Assembly: GCF_044324875.1 (NCBI RefSeq)
Contig: NZ_CP172185.1
Reading direction: 5' to 3' (one strand)
DNA from: Escherichia coli
GTDB lineage: Bacteria; Pseudomonadota; Gammaproteobacteria; Enterobacterales; Enterobacteriaceae
Length of the DNA stretch: 64,000 nt
Shown: one piece after another, positions 1,614 to 62,417 of the stretch
How positions within the stretch are numbered: the first letter of the stretch is position 1
Layout of the letters: each line of letters begins with the position of its first letter
Program-made: the position numbers and the translations under genes
Notes under the pieces: model-generated
What the model saw: the letters and a program-made list of their open reading frames with translations, nothing else
What the model was told of the DNA's origin: nothing
Databases searched by the model: none

Positions 1614-1888
1614 AACGATGTTGCAACATTATTCAGCGTCATGGAAAAAAGGACTGACTGCACTCTGCTTACTGGCTGTTGCCGGGCTTAGCGGCTGCGA
1701 TCAAAAAGAGAATGCGGCGGCAAAAGTGGAATACGACGAACTTTCGAACAGCCAACCGCTGCGTGTCGATGCTAATAACCATACGGTAACCATGCTGGTG
1801 CAAATTAATGGTCGTTTCCTCACCGACGACACTCGTCACGGTATTGTGAACCGCCCCGGGTTTCCTGGAGAGTGTTTTATCTGTGAAC

Positions 1889-2779
1889 TCAGGCTGCCAG
1901 ATCATCGTTTCCGATGGAAGCATAATAAGCTTTTTCTGCTTCTGCCGGTGGGATATGGCCCAGCCTTTCCAGCAATCGTCGATTGTTATACCAGTCCACC
2001 CACGTGAGTGTGGCCAGCTCCACTTCTGTCCGGTTTTTCCAGCTCTTACGGTGTATTACCTCCGCTTTGTAAAGGCCATTGATGCTCTCCGCCATCGCGT
2101 TGTCATACGAGTCACCAGTACTTCCTGTTGATGCCAGTAATCCGGCTTCCTTAAGCCGCTGTGTGTAGGCCAGCGATACATACTGAGAACCTTTATCACT
2201 GTGATGGACTGTGCCGGACGGTCGACGGGCCCATAACGCCTGCTCCAGAGCATCCAGCACGAATGTCGTTTCCATAGACGATGAGACCCGCCACCCCACG
2301 ATGTATCCGGCAAACACATCAATGATGAACGCCACATAGACGACCCCCTGCCATGTGCTGACGTAAGTAAAATCAGCCACCCACAACTGGTCAGGACGTT
2401 CTGCCACAAACTGACGGTTTACGCGGTCGCCTGCGGCAACGGCTTTCCGGCTGACGGTAGTGCGGACCTTTTTACCCCGGAGAACACCGGCAAGTCCCAT
2501 AACCGCCATGAGGCGCGCCACTGTACATCTGGCTACCCTGATTCCTTCCCGTAACAACTGACGCCAGACTTTACGCACACCGTATACCTGATGATTCCCA
2601 TCGTATACGCGCAGTATCTCTTTCTTCAGCCAGTCATCGCGCTGCGCACGGGCACTGCGTTTATCCGGATGATGTCGCTGTTGCTGACAGTGGTAATACG
2701 TTGACGGGGCAATATGTAGTTCACTGCATACCGGTCCGACCCCGTACAGCTTACGCAGCTTATCCAGCAGTGGCATCAC
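1889..2779 (-). CDS. IS629 OrfB (DDE transposase catalytic subunit)
   Basis: 296 aa rve-domain ORF with IS3-family DDE motifs. Confidence 0.9.
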
Positions 2780-3102
2780 TTTTTCCAGAGGCGGTCGAAC
2801 TCCGCCTTCGCAAAATAAGCGGAAGCCTGGCGAAGGATATCGTTACTGCGGCGCAGTTCACGATTTTCACGTTCCAGCTCTTTCAGACGCTGACGTTCAG
2901 CGGTGGTGAGCCCGCCATCACCGCCTCCGGTATCCCGCTCATGCTGGCGTACCCAGACACGCAGAGTCTCCGGTGTACAGCCAATCTTTGGGGCAATGGA
3001 ACAAATTGCCGCCCACTGTGAGTCATATTCGCCCTGACTTTCCAGAACCATACGAATCGCCCTCTGACGGACTTCGGGGGAAAAACGAGTATTTTTAGTC
3101 AT
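2776..3102 (-). CDS. IS629 OrfA (HTH transposase subunit)
   Basis: 108 aa [19 protein letters not shown]...; overlaps OrfB as in IS3-family programmed -1 frameshift organisation. Confidence 0.9.
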
Positions 3103-3622
3103 TCTGTTTACCTCTTTCTCAGGGAGTTTAGTCTCCAGGATTCCCGGGGCGGTTCATTGTGTTTAAAGATGGCTCCAACGGACATAAATCGCTGTTTATG
3201 GGTTATGCGACCCCGAAAGCATTTTATGAAGCCCTGAAAGAGGCAGGTGGTACACCGGGCGAAAACATGACGATGGATAATAAAGAAACGACTCATGTCA
3301 CAGGCAGCAAACTGGATATTTCGGTCAACTGGCAAGGGGCGGCAAAAGCGTATTCCTTCGATGAAGTGATTGTTGACAGTAATGGCAAGAAACTGGACAT
3401 GCGCTTTGGCGGTAATTTAACGGCAGCAGAAGAGAAGAAAACGGGCTGCCTGGTGTGTCTGGATAGCTGCCCGGTCGGCATCGTCAGCAATGCAACATAC
3501 ACTTATGGTGCGGTTGAAAAACGAGGTGAAGTTAAATTCAAAGGCAATGCCTCGGTTCTCCCGGCGGATAACACGCTGGCAACGGTTACCTTTAAAATCA
3601 CCGAATAAAGCCAGGATAAAGA

Positions 3623-4330
3623 ATGATGAAGATGCAATCGAGAAAAATCTGGTACTACCGTATAACCCTCATCATCCTGTTGTTCGCTATGCTGCTGGCA
3701 TGGGCGCTGCTTCCCGGCGTCCATGAGTTTATTAATCGCAGCGTTGCGGCGTTTGCCGCCGTGGACCAACAGGGTATAGAACGCTTTATTCAGTCTTACG
3801 GCGCACTGGCGGCAGTTGTCTCGTTCTTGTTGATGATTTTGCAGGCCATTGCTGCACCGCTACCTGCGTTTCTGATCACCTTTGCAAATGCGTCGCTGTT
3901 TGGCGCGTTCTGGGGCGGCTTGCTGTCGTGGACCAGTTCGATGGCCGGCGCGGCGCTGTGCTTTTTTATCGCCAGAGTGATGGGCCGCGAAGTGGTGGAA
4001 AAGTTAACGGGTAAAACGGTACTCAATAGTATGGACGGCTTTTTTACCCGCTATGGTAAACACACCATTCTGGTATGCCGATTATTGCCTTTTGTGCCTT
4101 TTGATCCCGTAAGCTATGCTGCCGGTTTGACTTCAATACGTTTTCGCTCGTTTTTTATCGCCACCGGGCTTGGTCAGTTACCAGCGACTATTGTTTATTC
4201 CTGGGCGGGCAGCATGTTAACAGGCGGTACTTTCTGGTTTGTCACCGGACTGTTTATTCTGTTTGCCCTGACCGTGGTGATTTTTATGGCGAAGAAAATA
4301 TGGCTTGAGCGCCAGAAGAGGAATGCCTGA
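3623..4330 (+). CDS. ydjZ: TVP38/TMEM64-family inner membrane protein YdjZ
   Basis: 235 aa ORF; N-terminus MMKMQSRKIWYYRITL as recalled for YdjZ; synteny. Confidence 0.85.
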   Translation: MMKMQSRKIWYYRITLIILLFAMLLAWALLPGVHEFINRSVAAFAAVDQQGIERFIQSYGALAAVVSFLLMILQAIAAPLPAFLITFANASLFGAFWGGLLSWTSSMAGAALCFFIARVMGREVVEKLTGKTVLNSMDGFFTRYGKHTILVCRLLPFVPFDPVSYAAGLTSIRFRSFFIATGLGQLPATIVYSWAGSMLTGGTFWFVTGLFILFALTVVIFMAKKIWLERQKRNA

Positions 4331-4878
4331 TGGGTTTACCGCCGCTTAGCAAAATTCCTTTCATTTTACGTCCGCAGGCGTGGCTGCATCGTCGCCATTA
4401 CGGCGAGGTGCTAAGCCCGATTCGCTGGTGGGGGCGGATCCCGTTTATCTTTTATCTGGTGTCGATGTTTGTCGGCTGGCTGGAGCGCAAACGCTCACCG
4501 CTGGATCCAGTAGTGCGATCGCTTGTCAGCGCGCGCATTGCGCAAATGTGTCTGTGTGAGTTTTGCGTGGATATCACCAGTATGAAAGTCGCCGAGCGCA
4601 CTGGCAGCACCGATAAACTGCTGGCAGTGGCTGACTGGCGGCAAAGCCCGCTCTTTAGCGATGAAGAACGGCTGGCGCTGGAGTACGCCGAAGCCGCAAG
4701 CGTAACGCCGCCAACGGTCGATGATGCCCTGCGTACCCGACTGGCTGCGCATTTTGACGCCCAGGCGCTCACCGAACTGACGGCATTGATCGGACTGCAA
4801 AACCTGTCAGCCCGTTTTAATTCTGCCATGGACATTCCCGCTCAGGGGCTGTGCCGTATTCCTGAAAAACGTTCTTAA
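4330..4878 (+). CDS. ynjA: AhpD-like/carboxymuconolactone-decarboxylase-family protein YnjA
   Basis: 182 aa ORF, start overlaps ydjZ stop; synteny with K-12 gene order. Confidence 0.85.
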   Translation: MGLPPLSKIPFILRPQAWLHRRHYGEVLSPIRWWGRIPFIFYLVSMFVGWLERKRSPLDPVVRSLVSARIAQMCLCEFCVDITSMKVAERTGSTDKLLAVADWRQSPLFSDEERLALEYAEAASVTPPTVDDALRTRLAAHFDAQALTELTALIGLQNLSARFNSAMDIPAQGLCRIPEKRS

Positions 4879-20869: not shown

Positions 20870-21606
<737 letters not shown>

Positions 21607-33750: not shown

Positions 33751-34178
33751 TTTTTGATTAATGGTGGGCTTGCTTAAATCTATCCGGCGTCTCTGTGGAC
33801 AAGGAGACCCGCGCCTCGATGAGTTCCGCACCTGATAATCCTAAAAAGACCCTCGGCTTCAGTGAGCCATTTTTTCTGTCAGGTTTTTAATCAGGTCTAT
33901 TTGCCGTTCATGTCATCAATAATCAGTCTTCGCAAAACCAGACAGGTAACTTGTATCTTATTTTTTAAAATAAGCTAATTGAGTTTTGTCAGTATCTATA
34001 TCAGGCCTGATATTCTTTGTGCAGAGCAGTGATTGCCCAGGCTATTCGGGCCAGTTTATTTGCCAGAGCGCAGGCGACAATATTTGAATGCTTATTGTCG
34101 AGTTGCTTTTGAACCCATTCAGCAACTCTGCCCTATTGAACCGCCCCGGGTTTCCTGGAGAGTGTTTTATCTGTGAAC

Positions 34179-35069
34179 TCAGGCTGCCAGATCATCGTTT
34201 CCGATGGAAGCATAATAAGATTTTTCTGCTTCTGCCGGTGGGATATGGCCCAGCCTTTCCAGCAATCGTCGATTGTTATACCAGTCCACCCACGTGAGTG
34301 TGGCCAGCTCCACTTCTGTCCGGTTTTTCCAGCTCTTACGGTGTATTACCTCCGCTTTGTAAAGGCCATTGATGCTCTCCGCCATCGCGTTGTCATACGA
34401 GTCACCAGTACTTCCTGTTGATGCCAGTAATCCGGCTTCCTTAAGCCGCTGTGTGTAGGCCAGCGATACATACTGAGAACCTTTATCACTGTGATGGACT
34501 GTGCCGGACGGTCGACGGGCCCATAACGCCTGCTCCAGAGCATCCAGCACGAATGTCGTTTCCATAGACGATGAGACCCGCCACCCCACGATGTATCCGG
34601 CAAACACATCAATGATGAACGCCACATAGACGACCCCCTCCCATGTGCTGACGTAAGTAAAATCAGCCACCCACAACTGGTCAGGACGTTCTGCCACAAA
34701 CTGACGGTTTACGCGGTCGCCTGCGGCAACGGCTTTCCGGCTGACGGTAGTGCGGACCTTTTTACCCCGGAGAACACCGGCAAGTCCCATAACCGCCATG
34801 AGGCGCGCCACTGTACATCTGGCTACCCTGATTCCTTCCCGTAACAACTGACGCCAGACTTTACGCACACCGTATACCTGATGATTCCCATCGTATACGC
34901 GCAGTATCTCTTTCTTCAGCCAGTCATCGCGCTGCGCACGGGCACTGCGTTTATCCGGATGATGTCGCTGTTGCTGACAGTGGTAATACGTTGACGGGGC
35001 AATATGTAGTTCACTGCATACCGGTCCGACCCCGTACAGCTTACGCAGCTTATCCAGCAGTGGCATCAC
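34179..35069 (-). CDS. IS629 OrfB
   Basis: Identical to copy 1 OrfB except for one residue (Q/E). Confidence 0.9.
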
Positions 35070-35392
35070 TTTTTCCAGAGGCGGTCGAACTCCGCCTTCG
35101 CAAAATAAGCGGAAGCCTGGCGAAGGATATCGTTACTGCGGCGCAGTTCACGATTTTCACGTTCCAGCTCTTTCAGACGCTGACGTTCAGCGGTGGTGAG
35201 CCCGCCATCACCGCCTCCGGTATCCCGCTCATGCTGGCGTACCCAGACACGCAGAGTCTCCGGTGTACAGCCAATCTTTGGGGCAATGGAACAAATTGCC
35301 GCCCACTGTGAGTCATATTCGCCCTGACTTTCCAGAACCATACGAATCGCCCTCTGACGGACTTCGGGGGAAAAACGAGTATTTTTAGTCAT
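35066..35392 (-). CDS. IS629 OrfA
   Basis: Identical to copy 1 OrfA except for one residue. Confidence 0.9.
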
Positions 35393-36351
35393 TCTGTTTA
35401 CCTCTTTCTCAGGGAGTTTAGTCTCCAGGATTCCCGGGGCGGTTCACTATTGATGCTCCAGCCGCATCATGAACGAGCGGGCGTACAGAACAAGTAACCG
35501 ACTCGTTTGCTGATCCCCAGCAGCATTGATTTACCACCGGTACTGTATTGTCGGGGAACAAGTCCTGTGGATGCTGCAAAATCCCTACTGCACGAAAATT
35601 GTTTACCATCACCAAGCTGGGATGATAGCAGGCTGGCCGTCATCGGCCCAACACCGGGGATTGTCATGATTCGTTGCACAGTAGCGTCAGCTTTGATTGA
35701 CTGGTTTAACTCTGATTCCAGTTCTGTTATTTGCTCAATACGATAAAGATAGTGAGCATGTAATTTCATCAGCAAGCGACTCAGATATTCAGGTATTTCG
35801 TGTTCAGCTAACGCCAGAGATAACCATTTTATTGCGGCATCCCCTGTCGGCAGTCTGATTCCAAATTCCAGCAAGAAACCGTGGATCTGGTTGTTTTTTT
35901 TCACCTTATCTCTGATGAGCGATTCTCTGACCCGATGTAATGCCCTCATTGCCTGCTGGGTTTCTGTTCTGGGCTGGACAAAACGCATTGATGGTCGTGA
36001 AGCCGCTTTGCATATGGCTTCTGCATCAATAAAATCATTCTTATTACCTTTGACAAACGGACGCACGAATTACGGAGAGATAAGTTTTTCTTCATGACCG
36101 ATGTCGCTGATACGCCGGGCCATAAAATGCGTACCAGCGCAGGCTTCCATAACAACTACTGAGGATGGACATGTTGCCAGAAACTGCATCAGCTTCGTAC
36201 GCGTAAACTTTTTACGCAAAAGCGCATTGCCAGATTTATCTTGACAATGAATATGGAAAGAATGTTTACCGAGATCGATACCAATAAGCGCAACGTTTTA
36301 CATGATGGTGCCCTCTAAAATAACCCACCCTGTCAGCGTACCGCTCACAGG

Positions 36352-37799: not shown

Positions 37800-38560
37800 T
37801 GAGTGAGTGCATTTCGTACAGTTAACCGCAAAAGGAGGGGGTACTCCATTCCATGAACTGGAAGCCCAGATACGATGCATAGAGTCACCTGATATTAAAA
37901 AGAACGAGGATCTTGAGGACGAGAACCGACGTCCAAAACAGATGCTTGCCGACCTTAGCCTAGAGAACCGGCATTGAAAGACATTATCGAAAAAAGCTTT
38001 AAAACCAGCCTGTAAGCGTGAGCTTGTTACTCATCAGATAACGACATTTGGACTCAGTGTCCATCAGGCCTGCCGGAGTCTGAACCAGAGCAGAACGGTT
38101 TCCCATTACCGTCCGGATACCACGTGGTACGACCCCGTTATTGTGGTGGTGCAGGCAGTGGACGAGCGATATCCTCGATACGGTTTTTCAAAACTTTTTC
38201 AGGTTCTGAGGCAGCAGGTTCGCGGCAAATCGCAGTTATCCGGTCATGCTGCGCATAGATAATGGTTCGGAATTTATCTCTCTAACGCTGGCTGAATGGG
38301 CTGATATACACGCAGTAAAACGGGAGTTTATCCAGCCGGGTAAGCTGACGTAGAACGCTTTTATTGGGCGTTTTAACAGGACACACCGTACAGAAATACT
38401 CGATTTTTATCTGTTCAGAACGCTGAATGAAGTTCTAGAAATTACGGAGAAATGGTTATCAGAATATAGCTATGAACGCACACATGAATCACTGAACAAT
38501 AAGACGCTGGAAGAATATCGACGACACCATTATTTGACCAAGATATAAAAATGCATGGAA
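37800..38560 (+). pseudogene. Degenerate IS3-family OrfB with several in-frame stops
   Basis: ...MLRIDNGSEFISLTLAEWADIHAVKREFIQPGKLT*NAFIGRFNRTHRTEILDFYLF... Confidence 0.5.
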
Positions 38561-46645: not shown

Positions 46646-48039
46646 GCTCATTCAAAACCCATTGCACACAGTTATGCCGGAGCGGGGCTTCTGGCCCATG
46701 TTGTCACCGGAAAGTATGCAGACCATCTGCCGTTATACCGTCAGTCAGAAATATACCGCAGTCAGGACGTGGAGCTGACACCGTTGCTGAACTGCTGGAG
46801 CCGCTGTATGACGTCCTGCGCCAGTATGTGCTGATGCCCGGTAAAGTCCATGCTGATGATATCCCCGTTCCGGTCCAGGAGCCAGGCAGTGGTAAAAACC
46901 GAACGGACAGGCTGTGGGTCTACGTCCGTGATGACCGTAATGCCGGGTCGGAGATGCCCCCGGCGGTCTGGTTCGCGTACAGTCAGGACCGGAAAGGTAT
47001 CCATCCACAGAATCATCTGGCCGGTTACAGCGGTGTGCTTCAGGCCGATACTTACGGTGGTTACCGGGCGTTATACGAATCCGGCAGAATAACGGAAGCC
47101 GCGTGTATGGCCCATGCCCGGAGGAAAATCCACGATTTGCATGCAAGAGCGCCAACTGACATCACCACGGAAGCCCTGCAGCGTATCGGTGAACTGTATG
47201 CCATCGAGGCAGAAGTCCGGGGATGTACAGCAGAACAGCGTCTGGCGGCAAGAAAAGCCAGAGCTGCGCCACTGATGCAGTCACTGTATGACTGGATACA
47301 GACCCAGATGAAAACACTGTCGCGTCACTCGGATACGGTAAAAGCGTTCGCCTACCTGCTGAAACAGTGGGATAGCCTGAACGTGTACTGCAGTAATGGC
47401 TGGGTGGAAATCGACAACAACATCGCAGAGAACGCCTTACGGGGAGTGGACGTAGGCCGGAAAAACTGGTTGTTCGCGGGTTCCGACAGCGGTGGCGAAC
47501 ATGCGGCGGTGTTGTACTCGCTGATCGGCACATGCCGTCTGAACAATGTTGAACCAGAAAAATGGCTGCGTTACGTCATTGAGCATATCCAGGACTGGCC
47601 GACAAACCGGGTACGCGATCTGTTGCCCTGGAAAGTTGATCTGAGCTCTCAGTAAATATCAATACGGTTCTGGCGAACCGCTTACTGTTCAATGGTCCAT
47701 TGGGGTTTTGACATCAATTATCTCCGGTAAGTTAGTGAATGGATATCGGTAATGCTAACTGACTAAAAATCCCTGTGAAGATGACTTCCCCGTAACGACA
47801 TAAACAAAGCGAACACCCGGACGAAATACTATTTCACAAATTGTTAGGGCATCATTTATGAGCAGCGTTTTAATCGAGTAGTCTTTACTTGCATTGCTGC
47901 CTTTATTCTCAGGTGTTCTCATGTCCAAGATGCTCTGTGAGTTCAGCGCTAAGCTCATCTTTAACAGTACACTTCGTAAGCATGGGTGATGCTGCCAACT
48001 TACTGATTTAGTGTATGATGGTGTTTTTGAGGTGCTCCA

Positions 48040-48315
48040 GTGGCTTCTGTTTCTATCAGCTGTCCCTCCTGTTCAGCTACTGACGGGGTGGTGCGTAACG
48101 GCAAAAGCACCGCCGGACATCAGCGCTATCTCTGCTCTCACTGCCGTAAAACATGGCAACTGCAGTTCACTTACACCGCTTCTCAACCCGGTACGCACCA
48201 GAAAATCATTGATATGGCCATGAATGGCGTTGGATGCCGGGCAACTGCCCGCATTATGGGCGTTGGCCTCAACACGATTTTACGTCACTTAAAAAACTCA
48301 GGCCGCAGTCGGTAA
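48040..48315 (+). CDS. insA: IS1 InsA
   Basis: 91 aa, GTG start; matches IS1 InsA as recalled. Confidence 0.9.
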
Positions 48316-48737
48316 CCTCGCGCATACAGCCGGGCAGTGACGTCATCGTCTGCGCGGAAATGGACGAACAGTGGGGCTATGTCGGGGCTAAATCGCGCCA
48401 GCGCTGGCTGTTTTACGCGTATGACAGGCTCCGGAAGACGGTTGTTGCGCACGTATTCGGTGAACGCACTATGGCGACGCTGGGGCGTCTTATGAGCCTG
48501 CTGTCACCCTTTGACGTGGTGATATGGATGACGGATGGCTGGCCACTGTATGAATCCCGCCTGAAGGGAAAGCTGCACGTAATCAGCAAGCGATATACGC
48601 AGCGAATTGAGCGGCATAACCTGAATCTGAGGCAGCACCTGGCACGGCTGGGACGGAAGTCGCTGTCGTTCTCAAAATCGGTGGAGCTGCATGACAAAGT
48701 CATCGGGCATTATCTGAACATAAAACACTATCAATAA
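48234..48737 (+). CDS. insB: IS1 InsB frame (expressed as InsAB' by -1 frameshift)
   Basis: 167 aa ORF. Confidence 0.9.
48291..48297 (+). promoter_or_regulatory. IS1 A6C programmed -1 frameshift site
   Basis: AAAAAAC in the insA/insB overlap. Confidence 0.6.
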
Positions 48738-48925
48738 GTTGGAGTCATTACCGTAAGCATGTATAAAAACAGGTTAAGATCAGATTCGGTTTTAAGGCAA
48801 TTTACCAGTTCGGCAGCAATAGCATTGGATTCTTGTTTATCAATTGCCTGTCTCCACGGTGTAGGGAACATATCAAAAACAGGCAATTACAAAATTTAAA
48901 TTACACTCTCGTCAGAACATAGCCC

Positions 48926-49570
48926 TTAACGAACCGTCCATGCAGGGCTGAAATCCTCTTCCTGAAACAGCTCTGTCAGCCCGCTAATCTGTTTCAGCCT
49001 CAGCACTTCATCCTGGTCCATGCCCAACTCTGTGCCAATACGCTCATCTGTCCAGCCCAGACGTGAGAGGTCCCTGACAATGTCAGACATTGACGTTACC
49101 TGGTGTTTTCCCCTGGCACGGTTATGCCGTATGGTTGCGGCAATACGTGATGCCTGTCCCTTTCTCTCTGGATTAATACAGGCCACTGGCAGCCAGCCCT
49201 TCAGACGTTTTCTCGTATCCGCTTTCCTGCCCAGCAACTGACGATGAAAACCATCCACGACCAGATAATGCTCCTTCTCTTCCGAAACCACCACAGGCTG
49301 CGTGAATCCATCCTGCTCCAGTGAATGTTTAAGCAGTTTTTTTTCACTGGAAGACATGACATTGGGATTGTAATCGTTGGCCACCACCTCATCCGCTTTC
49401 ACCCACAACACACAGTCCACAGGCTCCTGTGCAAAAGGGCTGACCTCATGCAACACCCTGCGCAGATGATTAAGGGCTCGTATGGTCTCTTCTTCAGATC
49501 GTTCCTGACTGAAGTACTGTCGAATCATGTTGCTCAATACTTCCACCTCAGGTGTCACAGAATCCCCCAT
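48926..49570 (-). CDS. ParB-like nuclease-domain protein (IbrB/YbdM-like)
   Basis: 214 aa; VVDGFHR motif; 16-bp overlap with the upstream partner; symbol withheld because homology is from memory. Confidence 0.6.
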   Translation of the reverse strand: MGDSVTPEVEVLSNMIRQYFSQERSEEETIRALNHLRRVLHEVSPFAQEPVDCVLWVKADEVVANDYNPNVMSSSEKKLLKHSLEQDGFTQPVVVSEEKEHYLVVDGFHRQLLGRKADTRKRLKGWLPVACINPERKGQASRIAATIRHNRARGKHQVTSMSDIVRDLSRLGWTDERIGTELGMDQDEVLRLKQISGLTELFQEEDFSPAWTVR

Positions 49571-50781
49571 TCCTTCCTCCTTTCTTTCATACGCTGCAGA
49601 TAACGTTCATAGTGCCGGGGTTTGTTCGGACTGAAGGAGAGGGTCCGACACCAGAAATCATTCTTTATGAGTGTCTTACAGATACGTCGCCAGGACGGGA
49701 TATCCCGGCTCCCCAGGTCATTCTCCTGTTCATCCGGGATGTCATCCGGGAAGCCCCGCGTCTGATACCAGCGCAGGTAGACAGCAATTTTATTACGGTA
49801 ATGTTCTGCCGTTCTTTCCGGCATCACATCCAGCAGGAACATCGCATAGCTACGCCAGGTATGATGAGGTGGCTTCGTGATACGCTTACGCAGGGCAAAA
49901 TAGGCACCGCTCTCATTGGCATAAAGCGCCCCGCTGGCAGCACCCGACACCCGCTCACACATCCTGGCCCAGGTTTCCGGCTCCAGAACATGGTAAAGCC
50001 ACAGTCCCTTACGCTGTTCCGGGCCAAAAGGCTCACAGACCCGCATGTTGCGTAACGGCACGCCGGCACGGTACATCAGGTCATACAGGGGATTGTAGAT
50101 AGCCCGGGTTCTGGCGTTATATATCCATATATCACGGGCTTTCCAGTCATACAACGGATACAAGGTGTAATAAAACCCTTCAGGTGACGCTGTGGTCCAG
50201 GGTTTATCATCTGCATATCTCAGTTTGCGCTGAGACACCAGTCCCATAAAGCGATTGAGCGATTCATCAGCACGAACACCAGTCAGTATTGCCACTCCAC
50301 ACCGGTTACCGGCAAACCAGGAAGAAAATGCCGGAACAAATTCTTCAAACGTCATGGCATACCGATAAAATGGGAAATACGACATATCTGTAATAGCGTC
50401 ATCTGGTGGCTGACGAACCCACTCCACACCTGGTTCCCAGCATATCCATTCCGGCTGAAACTGAGAGACACCGTTTACCGTAGTCAGGGGGAGTGCCACC
50501 CAGTAAAAGGTATCCGTCACATCCCGGTACATTTCCCGCATCTTCTGAACATGTTCAATGGTGCACTGATACTGAGCTTCCCAGTCAATGAATAATACAG
50601 AGAAACGACGTTTCTTCCTGCGAGCCACATCAGCCGCAAGATGGAGCAGCACAGTGGAGTCTTTTCCTCCGGAAAAAGACAAACAGACAGAAGAGAATGT
50701 TTCAAACAACCATTCAATACGGCGAATAGAAGAATGAAATACATCATCCTCTTTTATTATCTTTCGTATAGTTCCTGACAT
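49555..50781 (-). CDS. PAPS-reductase-like (DUF3440) protein (IbrA/YbdN-like)
   Basis: 408 aa; SGGKDS PP-loop motif near the N-terminus; paired with the ParB-like gene. Confidence 0.6.
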   Translation of the reverse strand: MSGTIRKIIKEDDVFHSSIRRIEWLFETFSSVCLSFSGGKDSTVLLHLAADVARRKKRRFSVLFIDWEAQYQCTIEHVQKMREMYRDVTDTFYWVALPLTTVNGVSQFQPEWICWEPGVEWVRQPPDDAITDMSYFPFYRYAMTFEEFVPAFSSWFAGNRCGVAILTGVRADESLNRFMGLVSQRKLRYADDKPWTTASPEGFYYTLYPLYDWKARDIWIYNARTRAIYNPLYDLMYRAGVPLRNMRVCEPFGPEQRKGLWLYHVLEPETWARMCERVSGAASGALYANESGAYFALRKRITKPPHHTWRSYAMFLLDVMPERTAEHYRNKIAVYLRWYQTRGFPDDIPDEQENDLGSRDIPSWRRICKTLIKNDFWCRTLSFSPNKPRHYERYLQRMKERRKEWGIL

Positions 50782-51312
50782 GTTGTATATAACAAAAATT
50801 AAAGAACTAATTAATATTTTGAATTATAATAAATAAACACTTTGAACGACAATGAAACTCTTTTGACTTAAAATTAGTTTGTATTCTTCTTAAAAATCAA
50901 ACCTGTGTCAACGCTGCCCCAATAGATACCACCAATTAAAACCATAGAAAAAACCACTAATACTCTTATTTATTACGGTTATTTAATCTATTGATTAAGG
51001 CTGAATTTAATATAATTTATTGCTGTGTTTTTACAAACATTTAGCATGATTGAACAAGTCATCCCGTTTTTTTCATGAAATGATTGATAGAAAGCTGAAC
51101 AGTACAGAATGATGTATCAGGGGACTCGTCATTTTTCCCAGCCTCAGAGTCTGTCTGAACGCTTTTACCACATTTTCTGTCTGCAGGGCTGCCGCCATTC
51201 TGGTTGTGTTATCAGACGCAGTAGCCGTTCTATCCGTCTGGAGGTGCCGGTAGCTGCCTATGTGGCAAGATTGCGTTGCATTTCGCTAGCGCGTCATCAG
51301 CGCCATGTTTCC

Positions 51313-52253
51313 TTAATATCCATCGCTGACCCTCCCGGGTTCACCTGTGTACGATCCGGAGACATGGTAGACAGGTGTTCGGGGACATGGTGAACACTTT
51401 TTAACATTCTTTGCCATGGTGATCGACTTATTTTTCAGGTCGATCACCCCCACTTTTGTACTGTACCACCAGACTTCATACTGACCGTCTTCCTGCGTCT
51501 CCTTCAGCCCCAGGCGTTCATTTCTGAATGCCTTGCCCGCACTCAGACTGACACCTCTCAGACTCAGTTTACCCCTGATATCCACCTTCCTGACTACCAC
51601 ACCCTCGTCATACTCCGGCGGCTCTACATTGCTCCTGAACTGTCGCGCTGACGGCTGATACCGTGAGGCAGGAACAGCCATATCCAGAGCTTCATGCGGG
51701 CGTTCAAGATTATAGACTGTACGCCAGTGATCGAAGGCGCGCTGCAACTCACCCGCATCTGTAAACCACTTACCCTGCAAAACTTCCGCCTTCAGACTGC
51801 GGTGAAAACGTTCCAGCTTGCCCTGCGTCTGTGGATGGTACGGGCTGGAGTGCCCCACCTTGATACCCTGACGCATCAGCCATAACTCCAGTGCCGTCCA
51901 GGTGCATCCTGTCCGGCAGTCCGTAGTGTTCAAATACGCTGACCAGCTGTTGCTGCACGGTCGTCCGTTGTTCATTGGCGCAGTGAGCCAGACACAGGGA
52001 AAAACGGGAATGATCATCCAGCAGCGTTAACGGATGGCAGCGTCCACCGCCAAAGGGAAAGTGCCCCTTAAAATCCATCTGCCAGAGCTGGTTCGGCGTG
52101 TTCGAAGCGGCCCGTCGCCGGGGCTGCCGCAACCAGACCGGGCAGAAGGCCATTGCGGGCCATCAGGTTATGCACCGTGCTGAAGGCGGGCAGAACAAAC
52201 TCAGAACGTAGTGACATGGTATCTCTCGCTTCCCTGGGCATAAGCGGCTCCAT
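51313..52253 (-). pseudogene. rve-core transposase (IS481/IS3-like), frameshifted
   Basis: Three overlapping ORFs in different frames; ...HSSPYHPQTQGKLERFHRSLK... Confidence 0.5.
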
Positions 52254-52537
52254 AAACGGGTTCTGATGCCTTAGTTGTAAGTATCAACCATGTCTCCGAA
52301 CAAGTGTTTACTATGTCTCCGCATCGTACACACCTGTCTGAGGGAGGAGACTGCCCGTCGCACTCTTTGTCTTGATTGCCGCAAATTGGCAGAGGTCGGC
52401 AACGCGAGTGTGATAAGCGTTAATGTCCCAGTGTTTTGCATACATGTCAGAACACCTTTGACTGTAAGCGCATACTGATCTTACCCACCAATAGTGGACA
52501 CAGGACTAAGTGAGTAAACTCTTAACCAGGGTGACTC

Positions 52538-52837
52538 ATGACAAAACCAGTATCAATCAGCAAGAAGCCCCGTAAACAACATACGCCTGAATTTCGTAAC
52601 GAAGCCCTGAAACTCGCTGAACGCATCGGTGTGGCCGCCACAGCCCGTGAACTCAGCCTGTATGAATCTCAGCTTTATGCCTGGCGCAGTAAACAGCAGC
52701 AACAAATGAGTTCGTCAGAGCGCGAAAGCGAACTGGCCGCTGAAAATGTCCGCCTTAAACGACAACTGGCGGAGCAGGCTGAGGAACTGGCCATCCTCCA
52801 AAAGGCCGCGACATACTTCGCGAAGCGCCTGAAATGA
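52538..52837 (+). CDS. IS3 OrfA
   Basis: 99 aa [24 protein letters not shown]... Confidence 0.85.
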
Positions 52838-53235
52838 AGTATGTCTTCATCGAAAATCATCGGGCAGAGTTCAGCATCAAAGCGATGTGTCGTGTACTTC
52901 GGGTTGCCCGCAGCGGCTGGTATGTCTGGCTCAGGCGTCGTCACCAGATGAGCCTGCGCCAACAGTTTCGGCTCACCTGCGATGCCGCTGTCCATAAGGC
53001 ATTCTTTGAGGCAAAGCAGCGATACGGTGCTCCCCGCCTTGCTGACGAACTGCCGGAGTTCAATATTAAAACCATTGCCGCCAGCCTGCGTCGTCAGGGG
53101 CTGCGGGCGAAAGCCAGCCGGAAGTTCAGCCCGGCCAGCTACCGTGCACATGGCCTGCCCGTATTGGAGAATCTGCTGGAGCAGGACTTCAGCGCCAGCG
53201 GCCCGAACCAGAAGTGGGTGGGTGACATCACGTAC

Positions 53236-55505
53236 TGTGTGCCCGGAGTTCAGGGCGAGCATAGACGCTCAAATGAACCACGAGTCTGTCTGGAATATTG
53301 AACCGGTAACTCACGATGAGAAACCCAACAATCCCACCGGGTGTGACGGTGGAGAACCTGAGCGGCAGTGACCTGCGGCATGCCCGCAGGGTGATGTAAC
53401 CCGCTGACAACGGGGATTGAGGCGAGATCACTAAGCCGAGATGATCCTCAAGGTTAAGTACTGAAAGGCTTAAGAATATGAACCCGTTAATCCGCCTCTG
53501 TGGGTTGAAAACGTCACCACGGCCTACGTGATCTGACAGGCCGTGCAGGAGGAACTGGCAGTGATACGTAAGCACTGCCGGTCGAAGGTGTTTTGACATG
53601 TATGCGAAACTCCGGGGCAGCAGCGTCTATCACGCTCGCGTTGCTGACTTCTGCCAACTTGCGGCAAGCAAGGATAAAGAGTGCGACGGGCAGCCTCCTC
53701 AGTATGTCTGAGTCCAGTCAGGCAAACCGGGGAAGGTCAGCGACGGATGTTAAGGGGGCATGGCTCCGATGACGCGCTGGCTGGCGGAGCTTCCGTAGTA
53801 GTCCGCGATGGGGAAAGCCCATTACATGGCGAAGGGAAGCAGTTTGAATGTGTCTGCGACGTAAATTAACTGACCTAACGAGGTGAAGACCTTTGATAAT
53901 CAGCGAAATGCAACGCAAGCTTGCCACATGGGCAGCCACCGATCCGTCCCTACGGATTCAACGGCTGCTGCGTCTGATAACACAACCAGAATGGCTGGCT
54001 GAAGCGGCGCGGATCACGCTTTCATCAAAGGGGGCGAATACCCCCGGTGTTGATGGCGTGAACAAAACAATGCTACAGGCCAGACTGGCTGTTGAGCTGC
54101 AAATCCTCAGGGATGAATTACTCTCAGGCCACTACCAGCCCTTGCCCGCCAGGCGGGTTTACATCCCTAAAAGCAATGGCAAACTGCGACCACTGGGTAT
54201 CCCCGCGTTGCGGGATCGTATTGTTCAGCGGGCCATGCTGATGGCGATGGAGCCGATATGGGAGAGTGATTTTCATACGCTCTCATATGGCTTCCGGCCT
54301 GAGCGCAGTGTCCACCACTCGATCCGCACGGTGAAATTACAGCTCACCGACTGCGGTGAAACCCGGGGACGCTGGGTGATTGAAGGCGACCTGTCCAGTT
54401 ACTTCGACACCGTACATCATCGACTGCTGATGAAGGCTGTACGCCGCAGGATCAGTGACGCACGTTTCATGACTCTGCTGTGGAAAACCATCAAGGCGGG
54501 ACATATCGATGTCGGTCTCTTTCGGGCGGCCAGTGAAGGTGTGCCACAGGGCGGTGTTATATCGCCGCTATTGTCGAACATCATGCTGAATGAGTTCGAT
54601 CAATACCTGCATGAGCGCTACCTGAGCGGGAAAGCAAGAAAAGATCGGTGGTACTGGAATAACAGTATCCAACTGGGCCGAAGTACGGCGGTCAGAGAAA
54701 ACTGGCAGTGGAAACCCGCGGTGGCGTACTGCCGCTATGCCGATGATTTTGTCCTCATCGTCAAAGGCACCAAAGCACAGGCGGAAGCCATCAGGGAGGA
54801 GTGTCGGGGTGTGCTCGAAGGCAGTCTGAAACTCAGGCTGAACATGGATAAGACTAAAATCACCCATGTTAATGACGGCTTTATCTTTCTGGGGCACAGG
54901 ATCATTCGCAAACGCAGTCGTTATGGCGAGATGCAAGTGGTCTCAACGATCCCGCTGGAGAAAGCCAGAAACTTCGCCGCATCGCTGACAGCACTGTTAT
55001 CAGGCAACTACAGTGAAAGCAAAGTCGATATGGCTGAACAACTCAACCGAAAACTGAAAGGCTGGGCCATGTTCTATCAGTTCGTTGATTTTAAGGCCAA
55101 AGTCTTCAGTTATATCGACCGTGTCGTGTTCTGGAAGCTGGCTCACTGGCTGGCCCGCAAATACCGTACAAGTATCGCTTCCCTGATGAGGTGGTGGTGT
55201 AAATCACCGAAACCGGGTCAGAGCAAAACGTGGGTTTTATTTGGTAAAACCAATCACGGCAAGCTCAGCGGCGAAATACTGTACCGGTTGGTGGGGCAAG
55301 GCAAGAAGCTGTTCCGCTGGCGGCTACCCGAAGGTAATCCCTATCTGAGGACGGAAACCAGAAAGACGTATACATCGCGCTTTACAGAAGTGGCAATGGC
55401 GTTCGCCAGCGTTTAAATGGAGAGCCGGATGCGCTGAAAGGTGCATGTCCGGTTCGGGGAGGAGAGGCAGGGAAATAGTCCGACTACGCCCTGCCTCTTA
55501 CTCTA
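53236..55505 (+). mobile_element. Bacterial group II intron with intron-encoded protein (boundaries +/- 3 bp)
   Basis: 5' TGTGTG start; IEP ORF 53893..55416; domain V-like GAGCCGGATGCGCTGAAAGGTGCATGTCCGGTTC at 55422..55455 followed by a domain VI-like stem. Confidence 0.75.
53893..55416 (+). CDS. Group II intron reverse transcriptase/maturase
   Basis: 507 aa, full length; RT motifs including YADD (CRYADDFVLIV) and a C-terminal maturase region. Confidence 0.85.
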   Translation: MIISEMQRKLATWAATDPSLRIQRLLRLITQPEWLAEAARITLSSKGANTPGVDGVNKTMLQARLAVELQILRDELLSGHYQPLPARRVYIPKSNGKLRPLGIPALRDRIVQRAMLMAMEPIWESDFHTLSYGFRPERSVHHSIRTVKLQLTDCGETRGRWVIEGDLSSYFDTVHHRLLMKAVRRRISDARFMTLLWKTIKAGHIDVGLFRAASEGVPQGGVISPLLSNIMLNEFDQYLHERYLSGKARKDRWYWNNSIQLGRSTAVRENWQWKPAVAYCRYADDFVLIVKGTKAQAEAIREECRGVLEGSLKLRLNMDKTKITHVNDGFIFLGHRIIRKRSRYGEMQVVSTIPLEKARNFAASLTALLSGNYSESKVDMAEQLNRKLKGWAMFYQFVDFKAKVFSYIDRVVFWKLAHWLARKYRTSIASLMRWWCKSPKPGQSKTWVLFGKTNHGKLSGEILYRLVGQGKKLFRWRLPEGNPYLRTETRKTYTSRFTEVAMAFASV

Positions 55506-55959
55506 CTGCGTACCGATGAGGGCTGGTTGTATCTCACAGTAGTCATCGACCTGTGGTCACGCGCCGTCATTGGCTGGTCGATGTCACCGCGAATGACAGC
55601 ACAACTGGCCTGTGATGCACGGCAAATGGCGTTGTGGCGGAGAAGACGCCCGGAAAGCGTCATTGCTCATACGGACCGTGGTGGTCAATACTGTTCAGGG
55701 GATTATCAGGCGCTGCTGAAGCGACACAACCTGCGTGGCAGTATGAGTGCGAAAGGCTACTGTTATGACAATGCCTGTGTGGAAAGCTTCTTTCATTCGC
55801 TGAAGGTGGAATGTATCCACGGGGAACGCTTTAGCAGCCGGGAAATAATGCGGGCAACGGTGTTTAATTATATCGAGTGTGATTACAATCGCTGGCGTCG
55901 TCACAGTGCCTGTGGCGGTCTCAGCCCGGAACAATTTGAAAACCATAATCTCGCTTAGG

Positions 55960-56800
<841 letters not shown>

Positions 56801-57322
56801 ATAGTTTCTCCCGTATACCGCTCATGCAACTCCCGCATTAAAATATACTGTTCCTTCCGGATAATTACGTTAAAATATACACCTGCGTGCATCTGTGTCA
56901 GACTCCGTTAGATACCAGCGTACATTGTAAACATGCCGGATGCACGCAATACAATAATCGGTCTTTTCGGAGTTATAGTCACCAGGCTGGCATCCCGTAA
57001 ATATGTATCAGGTAGCAATTCAGGAAGCGAACAAAAGCGCCTGGAGAAGGTTATCTCTGATAATAATTTACATGAAATGTCTCCTTTATTCTTCGCGAAT
57101 AAGGCCTTCAGTGTTCTCCCCTTTTCAGCAATTCTTACCGTAGTAATCACTCCTGCCTGTGTATAACACGAGAATTGCCAGAGTTTAACGTTTCGGTATC
57201 GTTATCCTGCATGATGTTGAACAGAACCGGGCGTGAATTCTGCGCCAGAATTTTCTTTCGAGGAACAGGTGATGCTGCCAACTTACTGATTTAGTGTATG
57301 ATGGTGTTTTTGAGGTGCTCCA

Positions 57323-57598
57323 GTGGCTTCTGTTTCTATCAGCTGTCCCTCCTGTTCAGCTACTGACGGGGTGGTGCGTAACGGCAAAAGCACCGCCGGA
57401 CATCAGCGCTATCTCTGCTCTCACTGCCGTAAAACATGGCAACTGCAGTTCACTTACACCGCTTCTCAACCCGGTACGCACCAGAAAATCATTGATATGG
57501 CCATGAATGGCGTTGGATGCCGGGCAACTGCCCGCATTATGGGCGTTGGCCTCAACACGATTTTACGTCACTTAAAAAACTCAGGCCGCAGTCGGTAA
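57323..57598 (+). CDS. insA: IS1 InsA (copy 2)
   Basis: Identical to copy 1. Confidence 0.9.
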
Positions 57599-58020
57599 CC
57601 TCGCGCATACAGCCGGGCAGTGACGTCATCGTCTGCGCGGAAATGGACGAACAGTGGGGCTATGTCGGGGCTAAATCGCGCCAGCGCTGGCTGTTTTACG
57701 CGTATGACAGGCTCCGGAAGACGGTTGTTGCGCACGTATTCGGTGAACGCACTATGGCGACGCTGGGGCGTCTTATGAGCCTGCTGTCACCCTTTGACGT
57801 GGTGATATGGATGACGGATGGCTGGCCACTGTATGAATCCCGCCTGAAGGGAAAGCTGCACGTAATCAGCAAGCGATATACGCAGCGAATTGAGCGGCAT
57901 AACCTGAATCTGAGGCAGCACCTGGCACGGCTGGGACGGAAGTCGCTGTCGTTCTCAAAATCGGTGGAGCTGCATGACAAAGTCATCGGGCATTATCTGA
58001 ACATAAAACACTATCAATAA
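57517..58020 (+). CDS. insB: IS1 InsB frame (copy 2)
   Basis: Identical to copy 1. Confidence 0.9.
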
Positions 58021-58412
58021 GTTGGAGTCATTACCCGAGGAACATTCCGGGTTATCTGTAGTACAGGAGGAGATTTTCTCCTATTTCAAATAAAATTCAA
58101 TGACAGGTGAATATTTAAATATAAATGCATCGCTTCAACAGAGAAATCGGAATTACGCCCGGAACCAGGCCTGAATGAATAATGGAGGAGGTAAAATAAT
58201 ATTATTGATGAAAATATCAAATTAAGTCCCCCTTCTCCTTCCCCAGCTTAAATATACTTACTTTTTCACTGGATAATATGTTATTGAATTACAAAGTTGA
58301 TCCTGATATACATGATTTCCGGCTCTTGCATCCAGTGATAACTTTATATACTCCTGCAAAGGCGAACTTCGTAAAAGTATACTTTTCTGTTGTAAGCATT
58401 GAGGTATCGAAT

Positions 58413-61181: not shown

Positions 61182-61270
61182 TGGGACCCCCTTTTGATTT
61201 CTTGTTTGACACTTGCAGTTGCCAGACCGCAAGGTGTTTTAACAAATCAAAAGGGGTTTTAATAACTGGC

Positions 61271-62417
61271 TCAAAGCTGAAAGCTTTCCGGCCCCCAGCC
61301 TAGCTGGGGGTTTTCTGTGCACAAAAATCCGGAAACGAGTGAGCGTTTCAGGATTCTTAAACAGACCCTGGATCGGTCAACTGCTCCTAAACTGATCGGC
61401 ATTACACCTGTCGGCTGCCGTTTTTTCAGCTCCGTGATCCATGGGCCGGGTTCTTTGGTCAGCAATGCTGCCGCCCTTGCCCCATGGATAAATAATGTCC
61501 GGTGGTAGGTATCCCCACGTTTGCTTATCCCCAGCATGCGAACCTTCCCAGCGGACCCCGTCTGCTTCGGCACCAGACAGACATAAGCGTCAAACTCACG
61601 TCCGGATTTAAATGCTGAGGCCTCGCCCATGGTGGCGACCACCGCCGTAGCGATTAACGGCCCCACACCGGGGATTTCCATTAGGCGCTTACAGTTTTCG
61701 CTCTGCCGTGCCACGCTGTTAATCTGTTTATCAAGGCCATCTATCTGCATGCCCAGCTCACTCAGTCTGTTGTACTGGTATTCAAGCACAGTGATGAGAT
61801 ACGGCGGCAGGTTCGTCTTCATTCGCTCTAGGGCTGTCGGTAGCTTTCTGTCCATCGCTGTCCGATCTTTGTGGAGGATTTCACCAAACTCGAGGAGCGT
61901 GCCAAGGGTATTAATATGCGAGGTTCTGAACTTCACCAGTTGTCTGCGCGAACGGTGCAGGACCAGAACTGACTGCTTCTCTTCCGTTTTAACAGCGATA
62001 TCTTTACTGGGCTGCTGTACCGCCATCCAGATAGCACGCGCATCCATCACATCATTTTTGTTGCCCATGACGAATGCTTTAACGAAGCGAGCTTGCAACA
62101 GCCGAACTTTGTGTCCCAGTTTTTTCCAGTTCCCTCGCCCAATGTTGGGAGCCTCCACAAGCCTCCATACCTATCAGACAGGGTTCCCGGTTGCTGAAGA
62201 ACGTCAGAAAATCCTTGCTACGTAGCTGCTTGTCCACCACTTCGCCCGTGTACTCATTGATGAAGTGAACCTGAATCAGATACTTTGCGATATCAACGCC
62301 AACCGGTGTATATTTCATTTGTGGAGTCGCCAGTCTGAGGGCGCTTTTGCATCCCGTATTGGGCACTATGATGCCGGAAATCTGAGAGGCTCCACAGCAG
62401 ACAATTTTACCCTTCAT
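61271..62417 (-). pseudogene. IS110-family transposase, frameshifted
   Basis: N-terminal ORF 62079..62417 and C-terminal ORF 61271..62158 overlap in different frames. Confidence 0.6.

Follow-up and report, generated by a model that had tools for sequence, protein, structure and literature searches.

Does the IS3-family transposase gene that is split near the right end of the window (the whole stretch of Escherichia coli DNA that was analysed, 64,000 nucleotides) carry a genuine group II intron, and if so, which one, and does it still splice and move? The original prediction was of an intact-looking group II intron lying in the sense orientation inside an IS3-family orfB, and this much is upheld by matches to Rfam and NCBIfam models and by an exact empty site. 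The best explanation, to which we give a probability of about 90%, is a full-length resident copy of E.c.I4, in sense orientation, at the canonical homing site in orfB of ISEc16. E.c.I4 is an already catalogued mobile intron of Escherichia and Shigella, and RefSeq labels the locus as ltrA in a split 'IS3 family transposase'.

The host element is on the plus strand. Its left part (52476 to 53236) comprises the left inverted repeat (TGATCTTACCCAC...), orfA (52538-52837) and the orfB 5' exon from 52834; this exon ends at 53236 with ...GGTGACATCACGTACT. The host sequence is 99% identical to RefSeq-annotated uninterrupted ISEc16 and matches the IS3 transposase profile NF033516. The right part (55507 to 55988) holds the orfB 3' exon, with its stop at 55956-55958, together with the right inverted repeat (...GTGGGTAGGATCA). 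Without the intron, the element is 1243 bp long; its terminal inverted repeats run TG...CA, it has both orfA and orfB, and the DDE transposase profile matches it. The two halves of orfB cover positions 90-225 and 226-369 of NF033516, and excision of 53237-55506 gives the exact uninterrupted ISEc16 sequence ACGTACT|TGCGT. The flanking exons do therefore rejoin in frame, as had been claimed, and the predicted ligated junction reads ...ACGTACT|TGCGTACC.... The earlier limits, 53236-55505, lie one base too far to the left at both ends; they would leave ACGTAC|CTGCGT, for which there is no empty-site match. Likewise, the insertion had been written as GDITY|LRTDEG, which is right in that both versions read GDITY-L-RTDEG, but the intron actually splits the Leu codon as T|TG (phase 1). 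Its placement in the DDE region stands, a few codons past the first catalytic Asp motif (GDITY), and the codon position is identical to that of the copies in strains IAI39 and 55989.

With limits set by empty-site comparison and by gapless identity to published copies, the intron (53237 to 55506, plus strand) is 2270 nt long, which is the length of E.c.I4 in publications. It begins with GUGUG and ends with CUAC, the canonical conserved ends of a group II intron (5' GUGYG, 3' AY). Comparison with catalogued introns gives 98.59% identity to E.c.I4-10 (IAI39) and 98.46% to E.c.I4-3a (55989) over 2270 nt with zero gaps, and the bacterial intron database gives a single name to all sequences that exceed 95% identity (PMC3552965). 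The remark that introns within insertion sequences are known from E. coli and Shigella was correct, and the known case is here E.c.I4 itself. E.c.I4 and S.f.I1, which share with the present copy their length, ends, protein architecture and homing position in IS3-family orfB, have been described by Leclercq & Cordaux 2012 (PMC3522654) and by Toro & Martinez-Abarca 2013 (PMC3552965), and published E.c.I4 copies are reported inside the transposases of IS629, IS911, ISEc16 and ISEc31.

Folding into domains I-VI, which the original prediction had offered as a check on itself, was borne out for domains I-III by covariation and for domains V and VI by the Rfam model RF00029, whose match at 55420-55506 reaches 64 bits (gathering score, 40; E value, 2.8e-10). 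At permissive thresholds, Rfam returned only domain V/VI matches in the interval 53150-55600 and none to the domain I-IV families, so the 5' fold was built comparatively. The resulting model for domains I-III is a consensus fold of 170 pairs from a 17-sequence alignment. In this model, 94.4% of the cells are paired, compared with 82.6% in shuffles and 34-44% in slid controls, a comparison somewhat biased in its own favour by the fact that the structure was taken from the alignment that tests it. Moreover, 75 pairs are altered on both sides, a number reached by none of 500 shuffles.

Domain I (53242-53731, intron nt 6-495) is closed in the consensus fold by helices 6-10/491-495 and 48-58/477-487. 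A single-sequence minimum-energy fold would instead close it by a helix 21-33/386-401, which we rejected because covariation favours the former two helices and because nt 21-46 are missing in alpha-proteobacterial relatives. Domain II (53732-53785, nt 496-549) is supported by helix 22, with five pairs changed on both sides. Just 5' of domain III (53789-53840, nt 553-604) is the J2/3 sequence GGCGGA, and helices 25 and 26, which support this domain, show 100% pairing with seven pairs changed on both sides. The domain IVa hairpin (53870-53903; helices 27 and 28), invariant in all 17 relatives, contains a Shine-Dalgarno sequence (GAGGUGA) and a TTG codon and stands just 5' of an ATG. Domain V, identified by RF00029 at 55422-55455, reads GAGCCGGAUGCGCUGAAAGGUGCAUGUCCGGUUC with an AU bulge; among relatives, one G-C pair has become U-A by compensatory change, and the bulge base is C, A or U. 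Between it and the stop codon, which ends at 55416, there are 5 nt, and not 6 as first reported. Domain VI (55458-55506) was placed by the RF00029 alignment and by folding and aligning the 3' ends. Its bulged branch-point A, at 55500, is 7 nt from the intron 3' end and is conserved in 15 relatives. All of these domains are on the plus strand.

The reading frame within the intron (53893 to 55416, plus strand) encodes a protein with reverse transcriptase (RT) and maturase domains and no endonuclease. It is uninterrupted, as had been claimed, and its YADD motif is intact; the stated length of 507 aa applies only from the TTG at 53893, and the RefSeq ltrA, which starts at the ATG at 53908, is 502 aa long. 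Since RefSeq uses the ATG while a Shine-Dalgarno sequence, GAGGTGA, is placed 6 nt 5' of the TTG, the start codon is ambiguous. The internal ORF matches TIGR04416, the group II intron RT/maturase family, at 335 bits (cutoff, 300). Within the 502 aa, Pfam finds RVT_1 at residues 86-332 (4.8e-34) and GIIM at residues 356-426 (1.2e-10) alone, and no HNH match that would point to a DNA-binding/endonuclease region. By its 98% identity to E.c.I4, the protein is assigned to bacterial ORF class A, the class of E.c.I4 (PMC3552965, PMC4244168), and published descriptions of this class likewise give E.c.I4 no endonuclease domain. Two amino-acid changes, A138S and R256L, are private to the present protein. 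The first alters an alanine that all 11 relatives compared, of 65-98% identity, have in common; nearly all other substitutions fall at positions that vary among relatives.

EcI5 (E.c.I5, class CL1/IIB1), from plasmid pO157, is a further group II intron of E. coli that encodes an RT/maturase, but its protein has a DNA-binding/endonuclease region, and it belongs to an unrelated class with another target. EcI5 reportedly retrohomes at high frequency, going by the title of Zhuang et al. 2009, and Dai & Zimmerly 2002 is said to be a source for E.c.I4 and S.f.I1; both are cited in PMC3522654.

Could there be no real intron here at all, but merely a chance ORF beside a hairpin resembling domain V? 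This is next to impossible and is already refuted: the Rfam and NCBIfam scores exceed the curated cutoffs, the sequence is nearly identical to catalogued introns and has an exact empty site, and the fold is supported by covariation. Nothing was found in its favour, and no result speaks against the identification as E.c.I4.

Recognition of the exon by the intron was also among the checks proposed originally, and it was borne out for EBS1. The EBS1 loop was found at 53567-53572 (plus strand, CGUAAG), in the loop of the hairpin nt 317-325/338-346, and it covaries with the 5' exon: comparison of EBS1 and exon sequences gives 6/6 pairing in four independent pairs (EBS1/exon in Halomonas, CATAGG/CCTATG; Salmonella diarizonae, GGTATG/CATACC; Acetobacter, TGTAAG/CTTACG; E. 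coli 55989, CGTAAG/CTTACG). With its own ISEc16 exon, CGTACT, the present EBS1 forms only four of six pairs, with mismatches at -1 and -5. In IAI39, E.c.I4 occupies ISEc31 sites with the identical two mismatches (exon CGTATA). The A at 53566, directly 5' of EBS1, could pair with the invariant T at +1. AGUAC (intron nt 219-223), which would form 5 bp with GTACT, was also considered as EBS1 and rejected because it adjoins and partly overlaps the strongly covarying long-range helix nt 222-235/455-469 (helix 11); it is the loop at 53567-53572, not AGUAC, that covaries with the exons. A scan of 17 intron/exon pairs yielded a candidate EBS2, UGAUGU at 53392-53397 (plus strand), with 6/6 complementarity to exon positions -12 to -7 (ACAUCA). 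The same bases also pair internally with intron nt 275-281, where there is one compensatory change, and three pairings compete for nt 126-172 and 275-282 around the candidate.

Would such an intron splice and move? From what is general to group II introns, it would be transcribed within the ISEc16 mRNA. The intron protein would be translated from domain IV and then bind the intron RNA, and ribozyme domains I-VI would excise as a lariat via the bulged A at 55500, ligating the exons in frame. The RNA-protein particle would then reverse-splice into DNA containing ...GAY-NTN-ACN-TAY-N|T..., mainly by EBS1/IBS1 pairing. Because the E.c.I4 protein has no endonuclease, we propose that DNA copying would be primed by the nascent strand at the replication fork, as for RmInt1. 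We infer splicing and mobility of the present copy from this general biology. RmInt1 (Sinorhizobium meliloti, class D, IIB3) is the best-studied analogue: it too lacks an endonuclease, homes into an IS transposase gene and acts as a retroelement disrupting its IS, ISRm2011-2, and it splices very inefficiently in vivo, at only 0.07% (PMC3035460). It differs from E.c.I4 in ORF class, RNA subclass, EBS sequences and target IS family, and its mobility pathway is established by experiment, whereas that of E.c.I4 is inferred here. The claim that splicing would restore the transposase is formally true, since the exons join in frame, but it is somewhat undercut by the low efficiency of RmInt1. Most likely, the copy in practice disrupts the ISEc16 transposase, and its splicing would be inefficient at most.

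How this copy relates to others bears on its activity. Of the complete E. coli genomes searched, 5,426 in all, 3,015 contain sequence matching the intron, and the present copy was compared with those of IAI39, 55989 and SMS-3-5. Close E.c.I4 copies have recently proliferated in several strains; IAI39 has 15, and 36% of its homing sites are occupied. The present copy is of a sublineage distinct from the IAI39 and 55989 copies, about 30 substitutions away, and where it differs from the IAI39 lineage, which has proliferated, the changes are mostly transitions that retain base pairs. Its locus is orthologous as a whole to that of the catalogued E.c.I4-25/E.c.I4-tr2 of E. coli SMS-3-5: the interval 48752-57267 is 99.75% identical, and the intron differs at four positions only. 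One of these is a W409* stop in the SMS-3-5 protein, whereas the frame is open here. The present copy thus appears, from these comparisons, to be a vertically inherited member of a sublineage common to SMS-3-5. The nest of decaying insertion sequences around it is likewise shared with that strain.

The sublineage is marked by five diagnostic 5' differences (A22, A27, C30, C34 and A44), and two alternative IS types, the main hosts of the intron, were probed as hosts for it in complete E. coli genomes: ISEc31 and an ALIL type, putatively IS629-like by its OrfA, which RefSeq labels just 'IS3 family transposase'. None of the 5,426 genomes has the sublineage 5' sequence joined to ISEc31-type or ALIL-type exons; the best chimeric-junction match, at 95.8% identity, mismatches at all five diagnostic differences. 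The main E.c.I4 lineage does occur joined to exons of both types. Moreover, two empty homing sites with a perfect IBS1 lie inside the window, at 2362-2383, in an ALIL-type IS, and at 34652-34673. Neither the chimeric-junction nor the locus comparisons gave a sign of recent movement of the present copy, and the evidence for its activity is weak.

These results somewhat undercut the original prediction of a candidate active retroelement. We consider it unlikely that the copy is currently active, splicing efficiently enough to restore the transposase and retrohoming into other IS3-family copies. Such activity would fit the open ORF, the YADD motif, the RT and maturase domains, the presence of every ribozyme domain and of EBS1, the in-frame exons and the late proliferation of close relatives such as those in IAI39. 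It fits poorly with the absence of the sublineage from the probed junctions, the two perfect empty sites within 64 kb, the 4/6 pairing of EBS1 and IBS1 with a mismatch at -1, A138S at an invariant residue, the decay already begun in the SMS-3-5 orthologue, and the 0.07% splicing of RmInt1. Several points nonetheless argue against regarding the resident copy as inactive. The ORF is open with YADD intact, nearly all other substitutions are at variable positions, the changes relative to the IAI39 lineage mostly preserve pairing, and the bulge base varies among open-ORF relatives. Empty homing sites are common even where E.c.I4 proliferates, as the occupancy in IAI39 indicates. Finally, ISEc31 has been colonised despite two mismatches identical to those here.

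The same observations bear on the opposite reading, of a dead relic that merely looks intact, inactivated by a point change and persisting as a stable knock-out insertion in ISEc16. The proposed culprits are A138S in the RT domain, a C-to-U change in the domain V bulge, or any of the roughly 30 lineage-specific ribozyme changes. The invariance of A138 in the 11 relatives would suit such a relic, as would a bulge base unlike that of the proliferating lineage and a sublineage whose spread is not evidenced. So would the surroundings: ISEc16 with its intron is embedded in a nest of degraded elements, and no 3-4 bp target-site duplication is present around ISEc16 (flanks ...GCATAC on the left and CTCCAC... 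on the right). At the junction with ISEc16, 213 nt of an older intron are missing, which, together with the missing duplication, suggests deletion or recombination following insertion. However, A to S is a conservative change, the bulge base is C, A or U in relatives with open ORFs, the ribozyme differences are mostly pair-keeping transitions, and the ORF is still open, unlike that of the SMS-3-5 orthologue. We regard a dead relic as unlikely, too, and retain the reading of a full-length resident E.c.I4 copy.

The target site of this copy is shared widely. The same transposase codon site is used in all 17 relatives, from three proteobacterial classes, with insertion after GAY-NTN-ACN-TAY-N and T at +1. 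A 2013 listing of class A had three near-identical members. The relatives found here (loci L006-L020), putatively of class A, are plasmid-borne in alpha-, beta- and gamma-proteobacteria, with the same domain architecture, 65-91% protein identity, and EBS1 fitted to their own exons. Their hosts are Bradyrhizobium, Mesorhizobium, Brucella, Roseibium, Novosphingobium, Acetobacter, Paraburkholderia, Mycetohabitans, Halomonas, Salmonella and Klebsiella. Burkholderiales copies begin with GUACG, in contrast to GUGUG in E.c.I4, and a Caballeronia copy is in the DETY motif of an IS6-family element rather than in an IS3 element. Tentatively, the whole class A lineage may home to a single protein-defined site, the DNA for the D-(I/F/V)-T-Y motif at the first catalytic Asp of DDE transposases. 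EBS1 would pair with the constrained codon positions and tolerate mismatches at wobble positions, so that one intron could colonise many IS3-family elements and occasionally change IS family.

For the present window, the outcome is the correct annotation of an ordinary, common E. coli retroelement, which in itself matters little: two half-transposase pseudogenes are one ISEc16, interrupted rather than degraded. With its 30-odd diagnostic substitutions and the nest found in both strains, the locus is a useful marker for a genomic island in common with SMS-3-5. Intron/IS tandems, which according to the literature span more than 3 kb, are long repeats capable of driving recombination. The shared transposase-codon target is of modest general interest for the choice of 'safe' targets by group II introns. 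If the family-wide rule is true and unreported, class A introns would be dedicated parasites of transposases, or brakes on them, across Proteobacteria.

The window carries a group II intron in the orfB gene of an IS3-family element, as originally predicted. The Rfam domain V/VI model RF00029 matches 55420-55506 on the plus strand (64 bits, where the gathering score is 40; E = 2.8e-10), 3' of a 507-codon ORF found at 53893-55416 (+) in the ORF listing of the window, and two IS3-family orfB halves flank both in identical orientation. The ORF, already labelled ltrA in RefSeq, scores 335 bits against NCBIfam TIGR04416, "group II intron reverse transcriptase/maturase" (cutoff, 300). Pfam identifies only RVT_1 and GIIM in its product, with no endonuclease domain. 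In the IS3 transposase model NF033516, the half-ORFs on either side cover positions 90-225 and 226-369. Because these positions adjoin, the two exons are contiguous across the insertion.

When the two flanks were joined as one query, they matched hundreds of copies that have no interruption and bear the annotation "IS3-like element ISEc16 family transposase." In one of these, L002, the empty site reads ...ATCACGTACTTGCGTACC..., and in the alignment only excision of 53237-55506 reproduces it. The intron is therefore 2270 nt long, with GUGUG at its 5' end and CUAC at its 3' end, and splits a Leu codon as T/TG. Both of the limits first proposed (53236-55505) were off by one base; the protein reading across the junction, GDITY-L-RTDEG, is unchanged. 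With the intron included, ISEc16 spans 52476-55988 and ends in TG...CA inverted repeats (L002 alignment). Inspection of the flanking sequence revealed no target-site duplication around it.

For comparison with catalogued E. coli and Shigella introns, E.c.I4 copies from E. coli strains IAI39 and 55989 were fetched by the genome coordinates in the published Table S3. Both align with the window intron along its full 2270 nt, gap-free and with the same ends, at 98.59% and 98.46% identity, respectively. Matching sequence is present in 3,015 of 5,426 complete E. coli genomes (megablast). Bacterial ORF class A, which lacks an endonuclease domain, includes E.c.I4 and S.f.I1 (PMC3552965, PMC4244168). 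For strain SMS-3-5, Table S3 lists a full-length copy, E.c.I4-25, and a 132-nt fragment, E.c.I4-tr2 (84% identical), that begins 893 nt upstream on the opposite strand. The window matches this layout exactly, and the SMS-3-5 region is 99.75% identical to window 48752-57267. Four positions separate the two introns. One of these differences is W409* in SMS-3-5, whose copy was published as having a disrupted ORF; the window ORF is open. The element is E.c.I4, a previously described intron, in a known kind of site and at a locus catalogued in another strain.

The intron-bearing ISEc16 sits in a nest of mobile elements (50936-56710), in which an older, diverged E.c.I4 relative lies within what is left of a minus-strand IS3-family element. 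Pieces of this older intron, 81-91% identical to E.c.I4, lie on the minus strand at 56075-55989, 52475-52344, 51347-51285, and 51287-51194. It formerly occupied another IS3-family transposase on that strand and has since lost its 5' splice junction by deletion. It is interrupted by an IS481-like remnant (RefSeq names; about 51348-52343, with ~69-nt imperfect inverted repeats) and by ISEc16, at whose junction 213 nt of it are missing. Two directly repeated IS1 copies, at 47985-48752 and 57268-58035, bracket both the nest and the ibrBA-like genes in a composite-transposon-like arrangement; both are absent from the SMS-3-5 region. A 604-nt inverted duplicate (20994-21597 and 56055-56658, 100% identical) takes in the minus-strand IS3-family remnant together with the first bases of what remains of the old intron, which puts a second copy of the old-intron junction 34 kb away. 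In E. coli strain 135 (L001, locus 991-4473), the window intron and its flanks are matched at 100%; that strain also has, ~4.3 kb upstream in the same nest, an ISEc31 carrying main-lineage E.c.I4, which is absent from the window. Elsewhere in the window, the Hfq-binding small RNAs isrN (138 bits, 38001-38143) and STnc490 (134 bits, 61191-61312) have full-length Rfam matches on the minus strand.

No Rfam model for domains I-IV matched in the intron region, and relatives were therefore collected for a comparative fold by distant-mode searches of the plasmid collection. Copies 85-95% identical were found on plasmids of Salmonella, Klebsiella, Enterobacter, and Yersinia, and a 67-74% group in Bradyrhizobium, Mesorhizobium, Rhizobium, Brucella, Allorhizobium, Roseibium, Novosphingobium, Acetobacter, Burkholderia-type genera, and Halomonas. 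Fifteen loci were fetched, their 3' ends being set by RF00029 matches, and a consensus fold was based on a 17-sequence alignment, A2. This places domain I at intron nt 6-495, domain II at 496-549, domain III at 553-604, J2/3 (GGCGGA) between domains II and III, and a domain IVa hairpin, with the ribosome-binding site inside, at 634-667. In A2, the alignment from which the structure itself was derived, standard pairs fill 94.4% of cells, versus 82.6% in shuffles and 34-44% with slid partners, and both-sided changes occur at 75 of 170 pairs, a count reached in 0 of 500 shuffles. Among the relatives, domain V includes a compensatory G-C to U-A pair, and the bulged A of domain VI (55500) is conserved. 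These pair counts and the domain V/VI conservation argue for an intron able to fold through domains I-VI.

The insertion point is identical in 17 of 17 introns, after GAY-NTN-ACN-TAY-N and with T at +1. Across the intron/exon pairs compared, the loop hexamer of the hairpin at nt 317-346 changes in step with the six bases that end the 5' exon: CATAGG with CCTATG in Halomonas, GGTATG with CATACC in Salmonella diarizonae, TGTAAG with CTTACG in Acetobacter, and CGTAAG with CTTACG in E. coli 55989. This covariation identifies EBS1 as 53567-53572. With the ISEc16 exon CGTACT it pairs at only 4 of 6 positions (mismatches at -1 and -5). The hexamer UGAUGU (53392-53397) is a candidate EBS2: it can pair at every position with exon bases -12 to -7, but it also has a competing internal partner. 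The base 5' of EBS1 is an invariant A, which could pair with the invariant +1 T.

The original prediction also took this copy for a candidate active retroelement. Indeed, the ribozyme parts are present, the ORF is open, and its YADD motif is intact. Amino-acid differences from other copies fall mostly at variable positions, transitions that preserve pairing make up most of the ~30 nucleotides by which this copy departs from the IAI39 lineage, and where its domain V bulge has U, relatives have C, A, or U. However, the copy carries A138S at an alanine invariant in 11 relatives, its EBS1 pairs imperfectly with its own exon, and the SMS-3-5 orthologue already has a stop codon. Nor were sublineage-specific junctions found with two chimeric queries, in which the initial 75 nt of the window sublineage followed an ISEc31-type or an ALIL-type IS exon: at full coverage, the best identity was 95.8%, equivalent to a mismatch at all five diagnostic bases. 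Main-lineage junctions appear in >1,500 records with the ISEc31-type exon and in >2,500 E. coli records with the ALIL-type exon. Moreover, two apparently intact IS3-family copies of the ALIL-pseudoknot type in the window (about 1847-3104 and about 34137-35394) carry, at 2362-2383 and 34652-34673 of the minus strand, TGGGTGGCTGATTTTACTTACG followed by T. Both are perfect IBS1 sites for E.c.I4 (CTTACG, then T) and both are empty, although homing-site occupancy is published as often low even where E.c.I4 has proliferated. None of these points is proof against activity, which we consider rather unlikely; they suggest a resident copy that was inherited with the island and has not been recently mobile. 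Splicing could formally restore the IS3 transposase, as also proposed originally. Yet among endonuclease-less introns in an IS, the best studied is RmInt1, for which in vivo splicing is 0.07 +/- 0.02%; its authors argue that introns of this kind act as retroelements restraining the host IS (PMC3035460).

A 2013 report described the family as "three nearly identical members"; by sequence comparison it is now much wider. E.c.I4 relatives with proteins 65-91% identical are widespread on plasmids (L006-L020), in Salmonella, Klebsiella, Bradyrhizobium, Mesorhizobium, Brucella, Allorhizobium, Roseibium, Novosphingobium, Acetobacter, Paraburkholderia, Caballeronia, Mycetohabitans, and Halomonas. Every one fetched lies in a DDE transposase gene at the same GAY-NTN-ACN-TAY-N codon position, before T. 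The Burkholderiales copies start with GUACG, not GUGYG, and the Caballeronia copy (L018) lies in the DETY motif of an IS6-family gene (NF033587, E = 5.9e-5). At the 55989 E.c.I4-3a locus (L004), the 5' exon is that of an ALIL-type IS (WVADFTY) and the 3' exon resembles the flank of the IAI39 copy; the two flanks may derive from a chimera, which recombination between intron copies in different IS would be expected to produce. What is mildly new here is solely comparative: the breadth of the family and the single transposase codon site that its members share.
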